10,119 nucleotides of DNA from an uncultured candidate division Zixibacteria bacterium (lineage in GTDB: Bacteria > Zixibacteria > MSB-5A5 > GN15 > FEB-12): NCBI GenBank assembly GCA_963806185.1, contig CAWDXE010000002.1, positions 1-10,119 on the forward strand, in the 5' to 3' direction. This document shows, piece after piece, positions 970-10,119 of this stretch. Below the pieces are notes generated by a model. It was not told the DNA's origin, made no database searches, and was given only the letters and a program-made list of their open reading frames with translations. Position 1 is the first letter of the stretch. The number at the start of each line of letters is the position of its first letter. The position numbers were made by a program, and so were the translations under genes.

Positions 970-3540
970 ATGACACGCACCATCTTGCTCGCTTTGAGTC
1001 TTGCCCTTACCGCCCTATCCGCGGGTGCGCAGGACACAGCCCATTTCATGATCGAAGCGCTTGCCGGCCGAGATACGTTGGTGGCAGGGTATCCCACCAC
1101 AATCTATTTCGGTTTCGACAATCGAAGCGACGACACCATCAAGGTAGTATCGACTGCTTTCCGGATCTATTCTCCCAATGGTGCACATTTCGATAGCCTG
1201 ACAGCCCTTGGCTGCGATTACTCCTGCCCGAACTTCGATCGCGCCACGGCGACCGTGTTTCTCGATCATGACGGGATTGGCAACGACGTGGTATGGTACG
1301 GTGGCGTCGCCGATGTCGGCGGTTTGATGCCCCATGGGCAATACGCGCCAATGGGACTTCGTTTCAAGACGCGAGCCGAAGATATTGGCAAGTCCATTTG
1401 CATTGATTCTGCCATGGTCGCGCCAGTCGGGAAGTGGACCTGGAGCTGGTTGCGGCGCGACGGCTCACGCGTGACTCCTGAGTGGGGGGGACCGTACTGC
1501 TATACGATTGGCAATCCACCTCATCCGTATTTCTGGCGCTGTCCCGAAGCCATTTACACGCAATTCAATCAGGATATCCAATACCAGTTTGGGGCAAGTG
1601 TATTCGACACGCAAAAACGGAGATTCTGCGTCCTATCCGGCCCAGGGACCATTGACAGCATGAACGGATTCTGGCAGTCAGGGCCGCTGTCGGGTGGAAG
1701 ATACCCCTTGATAGTCTGCGTAACTGATGGGCATTCGTCGGACACGTGTGCGACACAAGTCGTTGTGTCTCCGTATAGCTTCTTTGTTATTTGCCCCAGT
1801 GCGCAGGCGGCTGCCATTGGGCGTACCAGTGAAGTGACTTTACATGTTCAGCCCGAAGAAGACCAGGTAATTTACTCCTTAGTGAGCGTAGGGGGAGCGA
1901 CGGGAGTTGTAACTCTGGAAAGAAATCTTGGACATGTCCAATACACGCCTTCGGAGGCCGATGCATTGCTTCCACAACCGATCGTAATGCGGTTTACAGC
2001 GACTGACGGCTTCATGACGAGTGGTTGCTCGCTTCTGTGGTATGTGCAAGGACCTGGAAAGTATCGCGTTGAAATTGGGTATGTTCCGGACCAGTTACAG
2101 GGGCAGTATGCGACGCTCCCCATCACCCTGACCAAGGCCGACACGATAGAGGGCCTCGGCGGCTTTGACCTGCTCCTCGCCTATGACAATTCGGCCCTGT
2201 CGTTTCAGAAAGCGTTCTCGGGCAGTATCTACGATAGTTGCGGCTGGGAGTACTTCACCTATCGTTTTGGCGCCAACGGCAATTGCTCTTCTGGCTGCCC
2301 GAGCGGCATGATTCGCATAGTCGGTGTTGCGGATACCAATGTTGGTGATCACCGCCCGGGCTGTCAACCGTCGCAGGTCGGCCAATTGCCGGTTACGCTG
2401 GCCAATCTAAAGTTTCTCGTCACTAACGACCGAACTTATGAGTGTCAGTTCGTGCCACTACGTTTCTTCTGGACCGACTGCACCGACAACACTTTTTCGA
2501 ATGTGATTGGCACCAAACTCTTTATCTCATCAAAGGTACAGGATTACGGCAACGACACGCCGATCGACAACGGTTCAATCGGCTTCCCGACCTACCTCGG
2601 CGCCCAAGATGATTGTGAGACAATGACGCTGAAGGCCGAAGTGGTTCGCAGCGTCGCCTACCAGAATGGCGGAATCAGGATCGCCTGTGCTGACTCAATA
2701 GAGGTTTGCCCGGAGAGTTGTGCTCCCTTTAGTGACCTCGGTCGGAACTATGCTGCTCAAGCCTACCTGATGATGCGTCACTTTATTTACGGAGAGTCAC
2801 ACACGGGCACCAACGGTGAGTGCACCTGTGCCTGGGACATTGACGGAGACGGCACCGCAGAGACTCTCATCGATTTCCAGATGCTCGTCAGGACGTTTCT
2901 CAGTGCCTCTGGTGCCTGCCACACCACCAGCGAACCACATCCAGGGACGTATTCATACTCAGCTGGGATACTTAGCGTAAGCGCTGACTCCGGGGTTGGT
3001 GCGGTATGGGTGACTGTCGAAGGTGAGATTACACCAGTACTGCTGGCCGCGAACATGACGATGTCGTACGCTTCGGACTCCGGCAAGACGCGCATCCTTG
3101 TATCTGATTACATGGTGAACTATGACTGGATCGAGTCTTTCAATGGAGCCGTACTGGACTTGGGCGGCGCCGGAATTCTGCAATTGGAAGCTGTCAATCC
3201 CTGTGGTGAGCGACTCTTGCTCGATCCCACCTACGCCTCCGAGAGCGAGTTCAACCTTCCCACCTCCTTCTCCCTCTCCCAGAACTACCCCAACCCTTTT
3301 AATCCGGTTACCAGTATTTGTTTCGATTTGCCTACCGCCGGCACCGTTAGTCTGCAGGTCCTCAACCTCCAAGGCCAAATTGTACAGACACTCGCAGCCG
3401 GCCAGAAATCAGCCGGGCGGTACACCGTTTCCTGGGACGGGAAAAATTTCAATGGCGAAAATGTGGCCAGCGGTATATATTTCTATCGACTCACTGCTAA
3501 CGATTTTATACAAACGAGAAAAATGCTGCTCATCAAATAG
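970..3540 (+). CDS. Large secreted Cys-rich multidomain protein: signal peptide, N-terminal beta domain, two cadherin/Ig-like domains, cohesin-like domain, degenerate dockerin-like module, beta-domain, C-terminal T9SS type A/FlgD-Ig-like sorting domain
   Basis: 856-aa ORF with SD. Signal peptide MTRTILLALSLALTALSAGA|Q. Ig/cadherin-like segments ending V.VTDG and FTATDG (about 1513-2050). Cohesin-like segment QGQYATLPITL...LGGFDLLLAYDNSALSF...LANLKFLV (about 2059-2688). EF-hand-like DIDGDGTAETLIDF (from 2836). C-terminal LSQNYPNPFNP...LNLQGQIVQTL...WDGKN...VASGIYFYRL...TRKMLLIK (about 3253-3537). Confidence 0.85.
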   Translation: MTRTILLALSLALTALSAGAQDTAHFMIEALAGRDTLVAGYPTTIYFGFDNRSDDTIKVVSTAFRIYSPNGAHFDSLTALGCDYSCPNFDRATATVFLDHDGIGNDVVWYGGVADVGGLMPHGQYAPMGLRFKTRAEDIGKSICIDSAMVAPVGKWTWSWLRRDGSRVTPEWGGPYCYTIGNPPHPYFWRCPEAIYTQFNQDIQYQFGASVFDTQKRRFCVLSGPGTIDSMNGFWQSGPLSGGRYPLIVCVTDGHSSDTCATQVVVSPYSFFVICPSAQAAAIGRTSEVTLHVQPEEDQVIYSLVSVGGATGVVTLERNLGHVQYTPSEADALLPQPIVMRFTATDGFMTSGCSLLWYVQGPGKYRVEIGYVPDQLQGQYATLPITLTKADTIEGLGGFDLLLAYDNSALSFQKAFSGSIYDSCGWEYFTYRFGANGNCSSGCPSGMIRIVGVADTNVGDHRPGCQPSQVGQLPVTLANLKFLVTNDRTYECQFVPLRFFWTDCTDNTFSNVIGTKLFISSKVQDYGNDTPIDNGSIGFPTYLGAQDDCETMTLKAEVVRSVAYQNGGIRIACADSIEVCPESCAPFSDLGRNYAAQAYLMMRHFIYGESHTGTNGECTCAWDIDGDGTAETLIDFQMLVRTFLSASGACHTTSEPHPGTYSYSAGILSVSADSGVGAVWVTVEGEITPVLLAANMTMSYASDSGKTRILVSDYMVNYDWIESFNGAVLDLGGAGILQLEAVNPCGERLLLDPTYASESEFNLPTSFSLSQNYPNPFNPVTSICFDLPTAGTVSLQVLNLQGQIVQTLAAGQKSAGRYTVSWDGKNFNGENVASGIYFYRLTANDFIQTRKMLLIK

Positions 3541-3706
3541 ATGGGCGGCCTGCTATTATTTCGCCAGTTAGCAAGGAGACTCACCAGCTTTTCCTCTCTG
3601 CTCACGAATTCGAGATCGACCCGCACACTTAGGCGGGCCCATGCTTTTCACCGCTTGGCAGGAGGTAGGTATGTCTGGTCAGTCCTCACACAAACTGCAC
3701 TCGTTC

Positions 3707-3711
3707 AGGAG
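3707..3711 (+). promoter_or_regulatory. Shine-Dalgarno site of the second secreted protein
   Basis: AGGAG at 3707-3711, 7 nt before the ATG at 3719, which begins a clean signal peptide. Confidence 0.65.
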
Positions 3712-3718
3712 ACTCATT

Positions 3719-5818
3719 ATGTGGCGAAACGCCCTGATTGTCTTAGTCGTTGCGACGCTGGCCGCCGGCGCCGCAAACGCGGCGACGTATGGATTCCGTA
3801 TCGAACCCGTTTACAACCAGCTCCAGGGACGGGAGGTAGAGGTCGACATCACCTGCTACACCTACCCGCAACAGCGAGTGCTGAATCTCTGGTTATCGGT
3901 CGCCTATGATCTGGAGGCTCTTAGCTTTGCCGGAGCAGTACCGCTCGACTCAAGTCTTGGCTGCAAGTGGGACATGTCCTACAACACATTCGGTCCGGTG
4001 GTCGACGGCCCCGACGGCAAACGATACGGCGTTGCCTCCGTTGCCTATGCCGGCGCCGGCCCCTACGGTTCTGCGCAGCAGTCCTGCCCCTTTGAAAACG
4101 GCGAAACGGCGCCTTTCACCATCGCGCGTCTCAAGTTTCTGGTATCAAACGATCGGGGGTATGAATGTGATACGCTTCCCCTTCGCTTTGTCTGGTTCGA
4201 TTGTGTCTCCAATGCGCTCGTGGATACCGGTTTCAATTTCCATCTGTCATCAGCGTTGATCGATCCGTTAACACAGACCGATATCCATGCCCCGACTCTC
4301 TTCCCGAGCTTCTTAGGGGCCCCGGATTCGTGCGAAATCCAATTCGATCCCGATTATGTCCGGGACATCGAGTTTACCAATGGTTATGTCCAGGTCATCT
4401 GCCCGGACACGATCGACTATCGCGGCGACATCAACTGCAACGGCCTCTCCAACGAAATCGCCGACTTCATCTATTTCGCCAAGTATTTCATTGAAGGCCC
4501 CTCAGCCTTTGCCAACACGGCCCAGTGTTCATTTCAAACTTCCGACCTCAATTGTGATGGTCTTGGTGCGCAGCTTGAAGACCTGGTGCGGCAGCTGAAT
4601 ATAGTTACGGGATACTGGCAGCCGGATCCGTGCGGGGGAGAAGGTCAGCTCTTTGGTTTGTCTTCTTACGTGGACGGGATACTCGCCGCCGAGAGTGTCA
4701 GCGTGTCGGCGGCTCATATCGTGGCCGATGGCAACGTCACGCCCGTATCGCTTATCGCGGATTCGGCTTTTGTTCTGGCCTATCAGTATCACGCGGACGG
4801 AGACACAACCGCGATCCTGATCCTTCCGAATCTGGCCGCTGTTGCGTTGGGTCAGCCATTACCCACGTTTACCGGTCCATTTCTCGACTTGGGAGACGCC
4901 GAAGTGCGCCACACGGTGCTGGTGAATCCCGATGCCCGACGGATCGGCAGTGAGCTTTATCCTCGCGGTGATCTCAACTGCAATGGCATGGGCTGGGAAT
5001 TTGCCGATATGATACAACTCGAGTATTACCTGCTGATGGGTGATACATCCCTCACCTGGCAGCCAAAATGCGGGTTGCGCGGCGCCGATGTCAACTGTGA
5101 CGGCCGGAAGGGGGGAGTCGATGATCTGGTCGCTCTCCTCGGGACTTTTCGAGGAGTCTTTTCTGAAGAGGATTGCCCACCCATTTTGCCTCCGCTGGCC
5201 GGTTCATTCACCTATGAAAACGATACTCTCAGTATTGACGGACCTGCCGTAACGTGTGTGCGTGTGGTCGTCTCCGGCGAGATCATACCGCAGTTGCTCT
5301 TGACGGACTCAATGGTCACGCTTGAATACTATTATCACTCGGTGGGTGATTCGACCGTAGTCTTGATGTTCTTGAGGTTTCAAGGATCAGCACCATCCGA
5401 ACCACTTTCCGGTTACACGGGACCGGTACTTGATCTTGGGGGAGCCGAGATCCAGACGCTTGAGCTGGTCAGCCCTGACGGTCGCCGAATTGAAGCCATG
5501 CCGACCGGTGCAAACAACGGCGATGACAATACATTGCCCAGTACCTATGCTCTCGACCAGAACTACCCCAATCCGTTTAATCCGTCGACTCAGATCAGCT
5601 TTAGCCTGCCCTCGGCCGGTGCCGTCAAGCTGACCGTACATAATGTCATGGGCGAAGTCGTCCGCACGCTCATTGACCGGCGCATGAATGCCGGGCGCTA
5701 CACAATGGAATGGAATGGCAAAAACGACAGCCACCAATCGGTCGCAAGCGGCATCTACTTCTACCGAATCTACGCCGGCGACTTCACCTCGACCAGGAAG
5801 ATGATGCTCGTCAAATAG
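3719..5818 (+). CDS. Secreted Cys-rich protein: signal peptide, cohesin-like domain, two tandem [dockerin-like + beta-domain] modules, C-terminal T9SS type A/FlgD-Ig-like sorting domain; paralog of the upstream gene
   Basis: The ORF track starts at 3641, but ATG 3719 has an SD and gives MWRNALIVLVVATLAAGAANA|A (699 aa). Cohesin-like QLQGREVEVDI...VAYDLEALSF...IARLKFLVSNDRGYECDTLPLRFVWFDC aligns by eye with the upstream protein. Dockerin loop pairs GDINCNG/SDLNCDG and GDLNCNG/ADVNCDG. C-terminal LDQNYPNPFNPSTQISFSLP...VASGIYFYRI...TRKMMLVK. Confidence 0.85.
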   Translation: MWRNALIVLVVATLAAGAANAATYGFRIEPVYNQLQGREVEVDITCYTYPQQRVLNLWLSVAYDLEALSFAGAVPLDSSLGCKWDMSYNTFGPVVDGPDGKRYGVASVAYAGAGPYGSAQQSCPFENGETAPFTIARLKFLVSNDRGYECDTLPLRFVWFDCVSNALVDTGFNFHLSSALIDPLTQTDIHAPTLFPSFLGAPDSCEIQFDPDYVRDIEFTNGYVQVICPDTIDYRGDINCNGLSNEIADFIYFAKYFIEGPSAFANTAQCSFQTSDLNCDGLGAQLEDLVRQLNIVTGYWQPDPCGGEGQLFGLSSYVDGILAAESVSVSAAHIVADGNVTPVSLIADSAFVLAYQYHADGDTTAILILPNLAAVALGQPLPTFTGPFLDLGDAEVRHTVLVNPDARRIGSELYPRGDLNCNGMGWEFADMIQLEYYLLMGDTSLTWQPKCGLRGADVNCDGRKGGVDDLVALLGTFRGVFSEEDCPPILPPLAGSFTYENDTLSIDGPAVTCVRVVVSGEIIPQLLLTDSMVTLEYYYHSVGDSTVVLMFLRFQGSAPSEPLSGYTGPVLDLGGAEIQTLELVSPDGRRIEAMPTGANNGDDNTLPSTYALDQNYPNPFNPSTQISFSLPSAGAVKLTVHNVMGEVVRTLIDRRMNAGRYTMEWNGKNDSHQSVASGIYFYRIYAGDFTSTRKMMLVK
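4421..5494 (+). repeat. Intragenic tandem duplication of an approximately 181-aa module (dockerin-like + beta-domain)
   Basis: Copy 1 starts RGDINCNG at 4421 and ends FTGPFLDLGDAEVRHTVLVNPDARRIG (about 4948). Copy 2 starts RGDLNCNG at 4964 and ends YTGPVLDLGGAEIQTLELVSPDGRRIE (about 5494). Offset is 543-546 nt. Similarity is visible at the protein level. Confidence 0.8.
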
Positions 5819-5835
5819 CCACTGAGATCATCGCC

Positions 5836-5878
5836 AAAAATAAAGCCGTCAGATTGTTCACCTGACGGCTTCTTCTTT
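5836..5878. terminator. Bidirectional rho-independent terminator between convergent transcription units
   Basis: Perfect 10-bp stem AAGCCGTCAG (5843-5852) / CTGACGGCTT (5862-5871) with a 9-nt loop. It is flanked by AAAAATA upstream (U-tract on the - strand) and CTTCTTT downstream (U-rich on the + strand). Confidence 0.85.
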
Positions 5879-5898: not shown

Positions 5899-6717
5899 CT
5901 AGTACGACTCTTCCGCGTTCGGATACTTGCCGCTCTTCACATCCTCAATGTACTTCGTCGCCGCGTCGGTAATCTGCGGGCTCAGGTTGGCGTATTCGCG
6001 CACGAACTTCGGTTTGAACCCTGGTTCGCGAAGTCCGAGAATGTCGGTGATCACCAGCACCTGCCCGTCACAGTCCGGCCCGGCGCCGATGCCGATAGTT
6101 GCGGCCGTCTGTAGTGACTTCGTAATCTCGGCGGCAACATTCGATTCCATCAGCTCCAACACCATTGAGAAGCAACCGGCTTCTTCCAGTGCCTTTGCCG
6201 ATTCGAGCAGATATCTCCGCGAGCGATCCTCACGCCCCTGCACCTTCGGTCCGCCGAATCGATGCATCGATTGCGGCGTCAGGCCAATATGCCCCATGAC
6301 CGGTATGCCGACCTCAACCAGTCGGCGAATTGTCTCGGCCATCTCCATCCCACCTTCGATTTTCACCGCCTCCGCGCCGGCCTTCAGAAATGCGCCGGCG
6401 TTTTCGATGGCAGTTTGAATCGACGGTTGAAACGAGAGGAAGGGCATATCCGCAACCAGCAGTGCCCGCTCGGTCCCGCGTGCGACAGCCGACACGTGCG
6501 CCAGCATGACCTCCATGGAGATCGGCAGCGTCGTGCGGTACCCATGAATAACGTTGGCCGCGGAGTCACCCACGAGCAGGCAGTCGACGCCGGCCTGGTC
6601 GAGGAGCATCGCGGTGAAATAATCATACGCGGTCAGGACAGCAATTTTCTCGCCCTCGGCCTTCTTCTGGACAATACCCGGGACGGTGATCTTCTTGCGT
6701 CGATGCATGACAGACAT
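5899..6717 (-). CDS. panB: 3-methyl-2-oxobutanoate hydroxymethyltransferase
   Basis: Motifs LTAYDY, LLVGDS, ADMPFLSF, GAEAVKIEGG, MGHIGLTPQS and IGIGAGPDCDGQVLV; 272 aa. The start could alternatively be the ATG at 6708. Confidence 0.97.
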   Translation of the reverse strand: MSVMHRRKKITVPGIVQKKAEGEKIAVLTAYDYFTAMLLDQAGVDCLLVGDSAANVIHGYRTTLPISMEVMLAHVSAVARGTERALLVADMPFLSFQPSIQTAIENAGAFLKAGAEAVKIEGGMEMAETIRRLVEVGIPVMGHIGLTPQSMHRFGGPKVQGREDRSRRYLLESAKALEEAGCFSMVLELMESNVAAEITKSLQTAATIGIGAGPDCDGQVLVITDILGLREPGFKPKFVREYANLSPQITDAATKYIEDVKSGKYPNAEESY

Positions 6718-6730
6718 GACTTGCTTTCGG

Positions 6731-7396
6731 TTATTCCTTGCGGGAAAGGTTGCCGGCCGGGACGTAATACTTCTTGCCGCCGATCGGCCGATGAATTTGT
6801 TCGATCAGGTCGTCGAAATGCTCCGGTGTATGAACAAAATCAATATCGTCGGTCTTGACCACCAAAAGCGGCGTGTCAGCGTAGTGAAAGAAGAAGTAGT
6901 CGTACGCTTTGTTGAGGCTGTCAACATAATCAAAATCAATCGTTCGCTCAAATGTGAGGTTGCGCATCTTGATTCGTTCGAGCAATACTGCCGTCGACGC
7001 CTGCAGGTAGATCAGCAGGTCCGGGCGCGGCACGTCCTTGGCCAGCACCGGTGCGATCTTATTGTACAGGTTGAGTTCGCGCTCGTTGAGATTGATAGAC
7101 GCGAAGATCGAGTCCTTGGCGAACAGGTAGTCGGCTACGATTCGCTTGGCGAACAGGTCGCGCGTCACCAACTGCTGCTGCTGGTCGAACCGGGAGATGA
7201 GGAAGAAGAGCTGGCAGGGGAGAGCGTACTTCTTCCGGCTCTTGTAGAAGTCAACCAGGAACGGATTCTCGAATACCGGCTCCTGAAGCAGATCAGCTTC
7301 CAGCCTTTCGGCCAGCATGCGGGCAAAGGTCGTTTTGCCCACACCGATCACCCCCTCGACCGCGATAAAATTGGGTTCGAAACTATCGTGTGACAT
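6731..7396 (-). CDS. Deoxynucleoside kinase family protein (dgk/dck-like, folK-associated type)
   Basis: P-loop IAVEGVIGVGKTT, EPVFENPFLVDFY, QLFFLISRFDQ, PDLLIYLQAS and LERIKMRN..FE lid; 221 aa. It overlaps the end of folK by 14 nt. Confidence 0.9.
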   Translation of the reverse strand: MSHDSFEPNFIAVEGVIGVGKTTFARMLAERLEADLLQEPVFENPFLVDFYKSRKKYALPCQLFFLISRFDQQQQLVTRDLFAKRIVADYLFAKDSIFASINLNERELNLYNKIAPVLAKDVPRPDLLIYLQASTAVLLERIKMRNLTFERTIDFDYVDSLNKAYDYFFFHYADTPLLVVKTDDIDFVHTPEHFDDLIEQIHRPIGGKKYYVPAGNLSRKE

Positions 7397-7886
7397 GCTC
7401 TTTGTACAACAACACTCGCGCTCGGTCTTGTTCGGTCAAATAACCGGCTATCGGTTTGTCTTTGCCCGGATGTATGACATCCGGCGCTATCTCCAGAAGC
7501 GGCACCAAAGCAAACGGCCGTCTCAGAAGCTCCTTGTGCGGGATCGTGAGTCGATCGGTGGCAATCTGATGATTGCCGAAAAGGAGAATATCCAGATCGA
7601 TCGTGCGCGGCAGCCGTTTGCCTTTGTCGGTGCGACCGAACGCATGCTCGATCTCTTCAAGCGATGCCATAAGCGCCCCCGGTGTAAACTGGTATTCGGC
7701 CTGCACGACTTGATTCAGAAACGGCGGTGCATCGGAGGCCATGCCTTCGGCTTCGGAGTGATAAATCGATGAGATCCGAATTACTTCCAGCCCTTCGACC
7801 TCGGCCATCTGTTGTCTGGCTGTTTCGAGATACTGCTCCCGGTTACCCAGATCCGATCCCAGCAGAATGTATACGGTCTCGGCCAT
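7383..7886 (-). CDS. folK: 2-amino-4-hydroxy-6-hydroxymethyldihydropteridine diphosphokinase (HPPK)
   Basis: YILLGSDLGNRE, FLNQV, IEHAFGR, PRTIDLDIL and LTIPH...RPFALVPLLEI motifs; 167 aa. Confidence 0.96.
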   Translation of the reverse strand: MAETVYILLGSDLGNREQYLETARQQMAEVEGLEVIRISSIYHSEAEGMASDAPPFLNQVVQAEYQFTPGALMASLEEIEHAFGRTDKGKRLPRTIDLDILLFGNHQIATDRLTIPHKELLRRPFALVPLLEIAPDVIHPGKDKPIAGYLTEQDRARVLLYKEHVTR

Positions 7887-7892
7887 GAAACG

Positions 7893-8288
7893 TCACCTTT
7901 CAGTGGTATCGAGCATTGCGGTTGTGTTCCCCCGATAGCGCGTCATTTGCACTTCGATATGGCGAATGTGGCCCGCGATCGGCGGCGTCAGCTTGCGCAC
8001 ATGCAAAGTTACCCGTTGCAGGGGAAACTTGTCAAGCAGGACCGACGCAATCCTTCCGGCCAACGCTTCGACCAGTTTGAATTGCGTTTGTTCGACCACG
8101 TTGCGAATCGTCGTAAAGACGGCGCTATAATCGACGGTGTCGGGGAGGCTGTCGGTTTGGGAAGATTTGGTCAGATCGACTTCCAGTTCGGCGTCAACTT
8201 CATACATGCGACCGGTTTCCTGCTCGGCGGCGATGGCGCCGTGAAACGCGTAGAACGACATGCCGACCAGTCGTATGCAGTCACTCAT
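7893..8288 (-). CDS. folB: Dihydroneopterin aldolase
   Basis: FYAFHGAIAAEQETGRMYEVD, DTVDYS, FKLVEALA and VRKLTPPI motifs. The start is placed at ATG 8288, with GGAG at 8298-8295 lying 6 nt upstream, rather than the TTG at 8300. It overlaps the stop of the upstream gene. Confidence 0.94.
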   Translation of the reverse strand: MSDCIRLVGMSFYAFHGAIAAEQETGRMYEVDAELEVDLTKSSQTDSLPDTVDYSAVFTTIRNVVEQTQFKLVEALAGRIASVLLDKFPLQRVTLHVRKLTPPIAGHIRHIEVQMTRYRGNTTAMLDTTER

Positions 8289-9462
8289 CATGATCTCCAA
8301 TCGTCAGCAGGTTAAGACGGCGACTGACCCTTGCGGCGGCCTCCTTGTATGCCGTTGCACCCGCGGTGAGCGAGAAGCGCATATACCCTTCGCCGAGTTC
8401 TCCCATGCTGCTGCCGGGAACGGCGAGTATCCGATAGCGACGGTAGAGCAGACGCGCCAGGGTGGCCGAATGGGTCCTTCGATGAATGCGAGCCCAGAGG
8501 AATGGCACCGTCGACGAACTGGTCGCCTCAAGATTCAGCAGTGACATCAAGGTACGCGCCTCAGCATGATTCTCCCCCAAAAGTTGCCGAACGGACCTCA
8601 GATACTGGTTGGGATATTCTTTGATGGCTTGGCGGGCGAATTCTACCAGATAGACCGGGAGTTGCACGGGGAAGAGCGACTTGACGGCCCGAAGTCCCTC
8701 GAGTGCCTGACGACTGCCGACGGCAAAACCAAACGGCATACTCGGCAGGCCCAGCACCTGCGAAAACGAATACAGTTCCACTCCCGCCCGTTTTCCTCCT
8801 TCTACTGCCAACAAGGATATCGGCTTGCGATCGGGGATCGATTGGTGCGAGGCATCGTTGACAATCAGGAAATTCTCCTTGGCCGCGGACCAGACCAGTC
8901 TGGATAGATCCTTCTCGTTGAGTTCCGCTCCGGTTGGATCGTGCGGGGAATTTAATATGAACAGCGGCGCTATCCTTGTCAGTTGACCGGCCAGACGGTC
9001 AAGCTGTGGACGCCAGTCGGTCTTTGCCGAAATGAGGTAAGGGATGGGTTCCCCGCCACAGGCGGCGATTACCCGACGATAATGGGGCAAACCGACTCCC
9101 GGGACGAAAGCCGGATCACCCTGATCGACAAGACTCATGGTCAGCGCGAACAGGAGCGACGGTACGTCGGCGCCAACATACACTTCTTTGACACTGGCAA
9201 GGCGAACATGGAAGTGGCGTTCGAGCCACGCCATCAACTCCTCTTTCAGGCCCTCGATTTGGGCCGCAGTCGCAGCGGACAGATCGGCCTGAGTGAGACT
9301 GGAGTCCGGCGTGCGTGTGATCGGCCACTGAAGGTTGGCCAGGTCGATCAATTTTGCTCGTCGCAACAACGGCTGTCGCGGCAGTATTCGGGCAAAATCC
9401 GTGAGTTCGGGTGCCATCTGGTAGAGGCGGTCGGCCTTTTCGATAAGGATCTTCTTTACCAT
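8281..9462 (-). CDS. Aminotransferase class I/II (fold type I, DapL/AspC-like) family protein lacking the catalytic lysine; probable pseudoenzyme
   Basis: 393 aa. The scaffold is recognisable: LVDQGDPAFVP, AACGGEP, FILNSPHDPTGA, FLIVNDASH, GVELYSFSQVLG...FGFAVG, PFLWARI, ILAVPGSSMGELGEGYMRFSL. The SxSK lysine position holds Gln. Confidence 0.85.
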   Translation of the reverse strand: MVKKILIEKADRLYQMAPELTDFARILPRQPLLRRAKLIDLANLQWPITRTPDSSLTQADLSAATAAQIEGLKEELMAWLERHFHVRLASVKEVYVGADVPSLLFALTMSLVDQGDPAFVPGVGLPHYRRVIAACGGEPIPYLISAKTDWRPQLDRLAGQLTRIAPLFILNSPHDPTGAELNEKDLSRLVWSAAKENFLIVNDASHQSIPDRKPISLLAVEGGKRAGVELYSFSQVLGLPSMPFGFAVGSRQALEGLRAVKSLFPVQLPVYLVEFARQAIKEYPNQYLRSVRQLLGENHAEARTLMSLLNLEATSSSTVPFLWARIHRRTHSATLARLLYRRYRILAVPGSSMGELGEGYMRFSLTAGATAYKEAAARVSRRLNLLTIGDHDE

Positions 9463-9464
9463 TG

Positions 9465-10118
9465 TCAGCGTTCCCCCGTTTTGTCGTCCGTCGGGTTATT
9501 CAACGCTAGCCTCAGACTCACGAGTCGATCATAATCTTCCTTCGGAATCCGACCTACATTCCCGAGTTGGAGGGCCAGATGGCAAATCTTGGCGTATTGC
9601 TCCACCGTCTCCAGTCGGTTGAACGCTTCTTCAAGGCTCCGGCCCAGGGTCAGGACCCCATGATTTCGCAAGAGAAAGGCGTTGTGATCCGCAATGTAGG
9701 GAGCGAGCGAATGCGGCACGGCTTCGGTTCCCGGCGGGGCATACTCAGTCGTGGCAATTGGCCCGACGAAGACAATGACCTCCGGCAGGCAGTCATAGTC
9801 GAGCGGTCGGCCGGCTACCGCGAATGCGGTCGCACACGGAGGGTGGGCATGGACACAGGCAGAAATGTCAGGGCGGGCGCGGTATACAAACAGGTGCATT
9901 GCCATTTCTGACGATGGCCGTCCGTCTCCGCTCAATTTCCGACCGTCGAGATCAACCGTGATCATTGTCTCTGCCGACATGCGACCTTTGGCCACTCCCG
10001 AGGGGGTGATCAGAATTGTGTGGCTGTCCAGCCGAATCGAGATATTCCCGTCCGACCCGGCGATGAACTTGCGGGTATCGAGTCGCCTGCCGATTTCCAC
10101 GATCTGTTGTCGGGCTGT
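9465..10118 (-). CDS. Class II aldolase/adducin family protein (FucA/MtnB-like), 5' end outside the window
   Basis: GSDGNISIR, ITPSGVAKG, PSSEMAMHLFVY, VHAHPP and LLRNHGVLTLG; the catalytic Glu and three Zn-binding His are present. The frame stays open upstream of the GTG at 10100 (TARQQIV) to the window edge. Confidence 0.92.
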   Translation of the reverse strand, partial: TARQQIVEIGRRLDTRKFIAGSDGNISIRLDSHTILITPSGVAKGRMSAETMITVDLDGRKLSGDGRPSSEMAMHLFVYRARPDISACVHAHPPCATAFAVAGRPLDYDCLPEVIVFVGPIATTEYAPPGTEAVPHSLAPYIADHNAFLLRNHGVLTLGRSLEEAFNRLETVEQYAKICHLALQLGNVGRIPKEDYDRLVSLRLALNNPTDDKTGER

Positions 10119-10119
10119 A

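Follow-up and report, generated by a model that had tools for sequence, protein, structure and literature searches.

Tandem cohesin proteins of an uncultured Zixibacteria bacterium: possible surface docking posts with internal dockerins that, by prediction, close on a following mini-cohesin

Introduction

The display of proteins by cohesin-dockerin pairs on type IX secretion system (T9SS) anchors is already known as an inference for another uncultured phylum. Williams et al. (2021) deduced a cellulosome-like system in Ca. Stygibacter (Cloacimonadota) from genomes alone, and the portion of their report available to us cites a T9SS review for the C-terminal domain of the scaffoldin (PMC8542988). 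Here we analyze contig CAWDXE010000002.1 of an uncultured candidate division Zixibacteria bacterium (assembly GCA_963806185.1), the whole of which, 10,119 bases, is referred to as the window. It carries two tandem genes for protein 1 and protein 2, each of which combines a cysteine-rich (Cys-rich) cohesin, one or two internal dockerins and a T9SS sorting tail (Table 1). In our reading, which has a little more for it than against it, these are T9SS-anchored docking posts: the internal dockerins are self-locked on a mini-cohesin that follows each of them, and the upstream cohesin is likely a free socket for proteins that end in a dockerin.

Ca. Stygibacter resembles the bacterium studied here in being an uncultured, non-cellulolytic diderm known through its genome, with a non-catalytic cohesin protein that has a surface-attachment C-terminal domain and with secreted enzymes, including an S8 peptidase, that carry C-terminal dockerins (PMC8542988). 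As far as the available text goes, it differs in having a single scaffoldin of 3,755 amino acids with tandem cohesins and the carbohydrate-binding modules (CBM) CBM2 and CBM3, and a handful of named enzymes (PMC8542988). The present genome has single Cys-rich cohesins encoded by many different genes, an internal dockerin that is predicted to be self-locked, no CBM found and 91 dockerin proteins.

The Cys-rich domains share the fold of the cohesins of the clostridial and ruminococcal scaffoldins OlpA and OlpC (3ul4, 4dh2) and A. cellulolyticus ScaB and ScaC (5nrk, 4uyp), with Z values of 13-16. Those scaffoldins are anchored by the cell-wall modules of monoderms, whereas the window proteins have a T9SS tail as anchor, a cohesin enlarged to about 210 amino acids whose Cys pairs are coupled in the coevolution analysis and an internal dockerin that is predicted to be self-occupied where theirs is terminal and free; no glycoside hydrolase of family 9 (GH9) was found. 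These scaffoldins, R. flavefaciens ScaC (5lxv) included, are similar in the placement of helices 1 and 3 on the 8-3-6-5 sheet, in the presence of a cohesin and a dockerin in one chain and in their asymmetric single-mode dockerins, as described in the accessible part of that work (PMC5429695). Outside cellulose degradation, Archaeoglobus fulgidus (2xdh) and Clostridium perfringens (2vo8, 2w1n) have non-cellulosomal cohesins of this fold (Z 12-14), which differ by having no T9SS tail. The hypothetical 'planctosome' of freshwater Planctomycetes (Andrei et al. 2019) is a non-cellulosomal cohesin-dockerin display of peptidases and, like the present system, includes an adaptor with both modules; according to the accessible text, its proposed anchor is a lamin-tail domain, and the phylum and architecture are others (PMC6461901). 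The tandem free cohesins of a cellulosome scaffoldin are absent here, each window protein having one Cys-rich cohesin, with the N-terminal domain (N-domain) of protein 1 as a lead to a second one. Since, in addition, no cellulase cargo was found, the pair would work like anchoring or adaptor scaffoldins and not like a cellulosome scaffoldin.

Internal dockerins and the module behind them

A beta module of about 100 amino acids lies behind every dockerin of both window proteins. An earlier note on this DNA, made from the sequence alone, had correctly listed the cohesins, dockerins and tails and had overlooked these modules, as well as the N-domain and two immunoglobulin-like (Ig) domains of protein 1. 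Because each dockerin of protein 2 is followed by such a module, the repeat unit is dockerin plus module, and protein 2 duplicated the two as one block: its module 2 is nearest to its own module 1 (38%, 74 bits vs. 48 for the next match). In the genome as a whole, which is 82% complete and has 10,331 open reading frames (ORFs), all 10 internal-class dockerins are directly followed by a beta module; seven of them are profile seeds picked as entire cassettes, and the three non-seed copies agree. Among 170 homologs the module was assigned after 169 of 210 internal dockerins, a count biased by the presence of the module in the search profile, while 39 dockerins are followed by an unassigned gap of 103-316 amino acids and 2 lie 5-6 residues from the C-terminus. 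The distance from dockerin helix 3 to the conserved strand of the module is nearly fixed (median 27 residues, range 26-36, n=147). The profile of the three-module cassette matched 2,420 clusters at 50% identity, 1,073 of them at E<=1e-30. It also matched, in several copies, 116 of the 120 other sampled genomes of the phylum (E<=1e-10), where the weaker matches may be partial. Judged by their sequences, the window proteins are divergent extra copies of this phylum-wide cassette rather than its best representatives.

Couplings between positions were computed from 373 cassette sequences (effective number, 309) of a family that exceeds 1,600 proteins after removal of rows with more than 20% gaps, and are given in family numbering. 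They recovered the folds of the domains and gave the module a cohesin-like front sheet topology. Atlas matches of the protein 1 module to cohesins (0.79-0.81) are a lead only. Couplings between the Cys-rich cohesin and the dockerin, of which L12-E245 (rank 21) and Q15-E245 were the strongest, indicated that the dockerin is packed end-on under the cohesin, and none of the top 10 fell at the positions that we take to be those of recognition. The dockerin helices were in turn weakly coupled to the front sheet of the module behind them (V262-G303, V266-A304, S261-D366 and Y235-A327; z about 5-5.7, ranks 177-261). When the analysis was re-run, 6 of the 15 top pairs fitted a dockerin-module interface vs. 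1.06 expected (3-7 in four subsamples), and three shuffled pairings gave 1-3 fitting pairs with lower top scores.

Prediction of module 1 and dockerin 1 of protein 2 as two chains gave a complex score of 0.80 vs. 0.57 for the best of three controls, with a contact agreement between runs of at least 86% and a predicted local distance difference test (pLDDT) value of at least 86 for the partners. The mark used for this score, which 116 of 157 solved complexes attained against 2 of 215 mismatched pairs, is roughly valid for the alignment and calcium used. The model lays helix 3 and the final part of helix 1 on the four front strands of the module, in the usual cohesin-dockerin geometry. The model supports the binding of dockerin 1 of protein 2 to the front sheet of the next module. 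The protein 1 dockerin is a more independent check because it is absent from the alignment behind the complex prediction: 12 of its 20 predicted contact positions are similar, with a mean BLOSUM value of 1.85 (1.95 for protein 2), and at the non-contact positions the figures are 17 of 47 and 0.43.

Mid-chain dockerins of a second class, found elsewhere in the genome, likewise have cohesins behind them (of 6 segments, 3 reach significance by themselves; 97% in the profile-profile comparison). One ORF (C7:811817-816682) encodes an S8 peptidase with four mid-chain second-class dockerins, each followed by a cohesin-like segment, and then a tail; at the level of sequence, the plug-then-socket rule holds for this class too. 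In four other proteins (C6:144141, C7:699042, C7:703444 and C7:886346) a dockerin lies close to the N-terminus and no cohesin was detected after it, a free-plug layout that is in the minority.

Cohesin fold and front face

The Cys-rich domains of the two proteins are homologous (BLASTP, 30% over 402 columns, E 2e-35), and the cohesin-like nature that the earlier note had attributed to them was borne out by the predicted models. Compared with the type I cohesin 4uyp_A, the domain of protein 1 gave Z 16.3 and a root-mean-square deviation (rmsd) of 1.9 A over 143 residues, and that of protein 2 gave Z 15.5 and 2.3 A over 144 residues. Cohesin entries filled the top 18 and top 20 rows of the fold comparison for proteins 1 and 2, respectively, and cohesins were the best Foldseek matches of the protein 2 domain (probability 1.0). 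As modeled, both domains are cohesins by fold, with a nine-stranded jelly-roll sandwich. An interpretation of the Cys-rich domain as a mere X-module was dropped, given its full-length match to cohesins, despite the end-on packing on the dockerin suggested by coupling.

Of the family profiles that had been proposed for recognizing these modules, TIGR04183 (cut-off 23 bits) matched both tails, at 40 and 37.9 bits, and a FlgD match was confined to the tail. The Pfam family Cohesin (PF00963, cut-off 24.1) stayed below its cut-off for protein 1 (13 bits, E 0.12) and had no match in protein 2, and Dockerin_1 (PF00404) had no match in either. PF00963 was passed by a paralog in the genome (31.6 bits) and by the homolog P0013 (37.8 bits), and the assignment of cohesins and dockerins in the window proteins follows from predicted folds and from homologs that pass Pfam. 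The family profile of the internal dockerins matched the dockerin 5m2s_B of the PDB (E 0.006).

The 8-3-6-5 sheet is the dockerin-binding face of cohesins and is contacted by helices 1 and 3, according to the accessible part of the source (PMC5429695). With strand numbers assigned from the model and the couplings, the protein 1 cohesin retains 69 of 77 conserved positions (family median, 70), including nine of nine in strand 5. The protein 2 cohesin retains 39 of 77; for strands 3, 5 and 6 with the intervening loop the figure is 8 of 34. Among 20 related genomes, 6 gave a match to it at E<=1e-20 (32-35%), and none has a close relative of this domain. The two cohesins are not equivalent, the socket face being intact in protein 1 and eroded in protein 2.

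The dockerins show the reciprocal decay, so that protein 1 has a good cohesin and a decayed dockerin, and protein 2 an eroded cohesin and better dockerins. The protein 1 dockerin keeps 12 of 36 conserved columns and those of protein 2 keep 25 and 20 (family median, 33), in agreement with the one degenerate and two further dockerins counted earlier. On a set of 39 conserved positions, 11 are kept in protein 1 and 25 in dockerin 1 of protein 2 (family 5th percentile, 25). In protein 1 the first loop is lost (mean BLOSUM -0.53; pLDDT <50), and the second loop and both helices are kept. The duplicated calcium loop and helix motif is present by sequence in both dockerins of protein 2 and is incomplete in that of protein 1.

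Candidate partners and export machinery

If protein 1 has a free socket, its obvious partners are the 86 terminal-dockerin proteins encoded elsewhere in the genome. A second, symmetric dockerin class occurs in 91 of the 10,331 ORFs (98 domains), in 86 of them at the C-terminus. Its profile does not match the window dockerins, and the two classes gave 78% (E 1.9e-5) in the profile-profile comparison. The sorting-tail profile matched just 2 of the 86 terminal-dockerin ORFs, in both cases internally. Among the 24 cohesin ORFs, 12 have a sorting tail, 5 end in a dockerin and 7 are fragments or have neither, and 7 of 12 S8 peptidase matches are inside the 91 dockerin ORFs; tailed cohesin proteins and dockerin-ended enzymes thus coexist as in display of the Ca. 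Stygibacter type. The sole GH5 match is outside the 91 dockerin ORFs. GH9 was not found in the genome with a control that gave a signal, and GH48 gave no match with a silent control and an incomplete genome.

PorU (653 bits), SprA (542 bits) and PorV (54 bits) were above their cut-offs. The non-cellulosomal surface role in a diderm that the earlier note had suggested is consistent with these genes, and three of the T9SS components named there were found. GldM/PorM and GldN/PorN gave no match, with uninformative controls and at 82% completeness; this may reflect a T9SS without the Bacteroidota motor or the incompleteness of the genome. Two secretin-like genes are below the GspD cut-off.

Other loci contain related modules. 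A region with at least seven scaffold-like genes (C6:174000-198800) encodes an N-domain plus tail, Ig-repeat proteins of 1,149 and 3,033 amino acids ending in dockerins, three cassette proteins and an adaptor with cohesin and dockerin; two of its cassette genes are seemingly frameshifted in the assembly, and the canonical cassette paralog is at C6:194464-197109. Four tandem genes at C3:28783-34844 have an N-domain/Ig/Ig head of the protein 1 type with a terminal dockerin replacing cassette and tail, and the two kinds of ending look interchangeable behind this head. Giant Cys-rich repeat proteins of 2,165 to more than 3,100 amino acids end in a cassette (C1:744516-751013, C7:366341-375763 and C6:86741-97063, the last gene being frameshifted); one of them begins, by eye, with a von Willebrand A-like domain, and cassette-bearing open frames of about 3,000 amino acids recur in many relatives. 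A stand-alone Cys-rich cohesin adjoins a stand-alone N-domain, without tail or dockerin (C4:237217-238666), near the porU-porV locus (C4:246771-252386).

Proposed function and alternatives

As docking posts, the proteins would be exported by Sec, transported by SprA/PorV, cleaved at the tail by PorU and anchored on the outer surface, as the tail and the genes suggest by analogy with Porphyromonas. There, in the part of the source available, the tail is cleaved and the protein is anchored to anionic lipopolysaccharide (PMC8545088). The dockerin would pack end-on under the Cys-rich cohesin and use helix 3, together with the end of helix 1, to bind the mini-cohesin. The outcome would be a rigid, calcium-stabilized stalk, which is predicted for the first pair of protein 2 and supposed for the others, with closure within the same chain likewise supposed. 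The cohesin face of protein 1, perhaps with the N-domain, could then capture the terminal dockerins of peptidases, adhesin-like proteins and adaptor proteins. The stalk of protein 2 would be longer by one locked pair, and its face, remodeled or dead, would likely have a different partner or none.

Several observations weigh against this proposal. That the Cys-rich cohesin takes up terminal dockerins is something that we infer. The dockerin-module couplings are weak, the position sets used to count fitting pairs were partly post hoc and the shuffle ignores relatedness. A coupling of z 6.8, T64-V271, pairs a position in strand 5 of the Cys-rich cohesin with one in dockerin helix 3, which would suit binding in trans, and across the family conservation is strong in both the Cys-rich face and the internal dockerin. 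The margin of the complex prediction, 0.23, is barely above the 0.20 mark, one unrelated control having reached 0.57. Since the interface has the usual geometry, resemblance to solved cohesin-dockerin complexes may account for the pass; neither is the prediction independent of the couplings, as both use largely the same homologs, and the two together do not separate cis from trans. The beta module was not recognized as a cohesin in the profile-profile comparison (0.2%). The lack of matches to GldM and GldN, with its uninformative controls and at 82% completeness, belongs on the same side.

An unlikely alternative is that the cassette is a rigid stalk with no docking role, the N-domain or the remodeled cohesin binding glycans or surfaces in an adhesin-like manner, or that the genes are drifting spare copies. 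This would suit the eroded face of protein 2 and its distant best relatives, the finding of the N-domain/Ig head with either the cassette or a terminal dockerin, and the resemblance of the N-domain to the CLIPPER domain of an adhesin; simpler cohesin-plus-tail proteins could, besides, provide the docking. However, conservation of the protein 1 front face reaches or comes close to the family median, a level that a simple spacer would not require, and both long ORFs are intact.

The earlier note had proposed that the two proteins polymerize head-to-tail, with protein 2 as the branch point. With the first calcium loop of the protein 1 dockerin lost and the protein 2 cohesin face eroded, an alternating chain through these modules is impossible, and the idea is further weakened by internal dockerins that are likely self-locked on the downstream module. 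The note was right on the modules and on the non-cellulosomal surface role, and probably wrong on mutual polymerization. In a refined form, the Cys-rich cohesin of one cassette would bind the internal dockerin of another in trans, forming chains that protein 2 cross-links and protein 1 caps. The reciprocal decay of the tandem genes would suit a socket-only and a plug-only partner, a Cys-rich cohesin precedes 201 of the 210 internal dockerins of the homologs, with both modules conserved, and T64-V271 connects the cohesin face to helix 3. Yet the top cohesin-dockerin couplings miss the recognition positions and indicate end-on packing, the binding helices of the dockerin are predicted to be occupied by the downstream module, and the protein 1 dockerin retains precisely the positions that contact that module, so that we regard such chains as quite unlikely.

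A domain swap of the dockerin/mini-cohesin pair between molecules, giving a calcium-dependent surface lattice branched by protein 2, is very unlikely: the pair was folded as separate chains and its couplings fit cis or trans, and the several cassette copies in nearly all sampled genomes would agree with a lattice, but the short, near-fixed spacing and the strict 1:1 ratio of plug to module would favor intramolecular closure, and the protein 2 model suits, indirectly, a single rigid cohesin-dockerin-module block.

Apart from these alternatives, the docking-post reading has a more speculative and rather unlikely extension, in which the locked pair is a calcium latch at the foot of phylum-wide carriers, with the terminal dockerin as another tag for secretion. 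About 85 tail-less secreted proteins would, in the periplasm, attach to cohesin-tail proteins like protein 1, pass SprA as passengers and stay displayed, and self-locked pairs could swap between neighbors into a carrier lattice branched by protein 2. The secretin-like genes lower this idea because they leave a type II route for tail-less proteins.

What looks undescribed is the scale and design, namely the occurrence in 116 of 120 genomes, the 91 dockerin proteins and an internal dockerin that is predicted to close on a mini-cohesin of its own. A literature search that was mostly without subscription papers and supplements found no report linking Zixibacteria with dockerins, or on the cassette or a self-locked pair, and the accessible part of PMC12635249 has nothing on this phylum. 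If the docking-post reading is true, it concerns a core feature of the envelope in a widespread sediment phylum, one largely missed by annotation (PF00404 is passed by 19 matches genome-wide vs. the 91 dockerin proteins), and it would offer an orthogonal Cys-rich cohesin-dockerin pair for protein engineering. It also raises the question of how tail-less dockerin proteins cross the outer membrane.

Domain layout

The AlphaFold2 models of protein 1 (pLDDT 84.7; predicted template modeling score, pTM, 0.50; alignment of 73 rows) and protein 2 (pLDDT 75.8; pTM 0.58; alignment of 91 rows; 111 of 677 residues with pLDDT <50) are strings of beta-sandwiches with helical dockerins in between. The features are collected in Table 1.

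Table 1. Coordinates of the features of the window (aa, amino acids; T9SS, type IX secretion system).
Feature	Position	Strand	Basis
Protein 1 gene, 856 aa: signal peptide - N-domain - Ig - Ig - Cys-rich cohesin - degenerate dockerin - mini-cohesin-like module - T9SS type A tail	970..3540	+	
Protein 1 likely Sec signal peptide, hydrophobic, ends AGA	970..1029	+	Judged by eye
Protein 1 N-domain, beta-sandwich, possibly a very divergent second cohesin (lead only)	1033..1515	+	
Protein 1 two cadherin-like Ig spacer domains	1516..2055	+	Cadherin-23 EC1 Z 11.5, rmsd 2.1, 89 aligned
Protein 1 Cys-rich cohesin, conserved front face intact, likely free socket	2059..2694	+	Z 16.3 to 4uyp_A
Protein 1 degenerate internal dockerin, first calcium loop lost, second loop kept	2725..2907	+	
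Protein 1 post-dockerin beta module, predicted mini-cohesin	2932..3231	+	12/13 conserved positions
Protein 1 T9SS type A sorting domain	3262..3537	+	TIGR04183 40 bits, PF18962 29 bits
Protein 2 gene, 699 aa: signal peptide - Cys-rich cohesin - (dockerin - mini-cohesin-like module) x2 - T9SS type A tail	3719..5818	+	
Protein 2 likely Sec signal peptide, ends ANA	3719..3781	+	By eye
Protein 2 Cys-rich cohesin, fold kept, conserved front face eroded	3785..4408	+	Z 15.5 to 4uyp_A
Protein 2 internal dockerin 1, two calcium-type loops	4421..4615	+	25/36 conserved columns; helices well predicted
Protein 2 beta module 1, predicted mini-cohesin capping dockerin 1	4643..4960	+	Complex score 0.80; couplings
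Protein 2 internal dockerin 2	4964..5158	+	20/36 conserved columns; model pLDDT <50
Protein 2 beta module 2, duplicated with dockerin 2	5189..5506	+	38% to module 1
Protein 2 T9SS type A sorting domain	5540..5815	+	TIGR04183 37.9 bits; PorU tail 6za2
13-pair hairpin, terminator-like, between protein 2 and convergent panB	5842..5872	.	Detected on minus strand; consensus match only

The type A sorting domains claimed earlier for both proteins were confirmed by TIGR04183, and the predicted tail of protein 2 superimposes on the PorU tail 6za2 (Z 9.4, rmsd 2.5, 89 aligned). The signal peptides claimed for both are likely, as far as the hydrophobic N-termini can be judged by eye. The family profile of the Ig domains matched protocadherin-15 (E 7.5e-9). 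The protein 1 N-domain has 8 paralogs in the genome and resembles the CLIPPER domain 9ifr (Z 10.7, rmsd 3.1, 122 aligned); its Atlas matches to cohesin clusters (0.88-0.89) are a lead only, the profile-profile comparison with cohesins giving just 5%.

The sorting tail was the only match of Pfam and NCBIfam scans of both proteins, with no catalytic family and, in Pfam, no CBM. A hidden catalytic domain was rejected, in keeping with the absence of enzyme motifs noted earlier, because none appeared in these scans or among the leading fold matches; two glycoside hydrolase entries in the Foldseek list of protein 1 are at ranks 41 and 47, with a TM value of 0.17. Weak whole-protein matches to the PorU, PorZ, M6, M36 and FlgD families were set aside as tail-only. 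Foldseek with the whole protein 1 model gave just long Ig-string matches. The fold searches bore little on the beta modules, dockerins and N-domain, for which no PDB fold match is claimed or excluded.

Gene neighborhood

The two plus-strand ORFs are intact and span 970-3540 and 3641-5818; the likely start of protein 2 is the ATG at 3719, which is preceded by an AGGAGA site and gives the same length as the database protein P0003. Promoter and terminator scans of the window gave no excess over shuffles (terminator sites, 2 vs. 4.4 expected). The pair lies between a tetratricopeptide repeat (TPR) gene and a convergent panB-dNK-folK-folB cluster. The minus strand of 5899-10119 encodes housekeeping functions (class II aldolase, aminotransferase I/II, folB, folK, deoxynucleoside kinase and panB), and the aminotransferase seems, by eye, to be missing the usual pyridoxal phosphate lysine motif. 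Positions 249-815 encode the C-terminal portion of the TPR-containing protein and probably continue a frame from the start of the contig; positions 2-391 are read in a different frame, a possible assembly frameshift.

The third-position G+C content of the protein 1 and 2 genes is 0.61 and 0.64, respectively (lower quartile of 387 long ORFs, 0.66), in line with fast divergence or foreign origin. By submitter title, the 80 loci of named homologs comprise 38 from Zixiibacteriota/GN15, 26 from Ignavibacteriales, 2 from Calditrichota, 1 from Planctomycetales and 13 labeled 'bacterium'.

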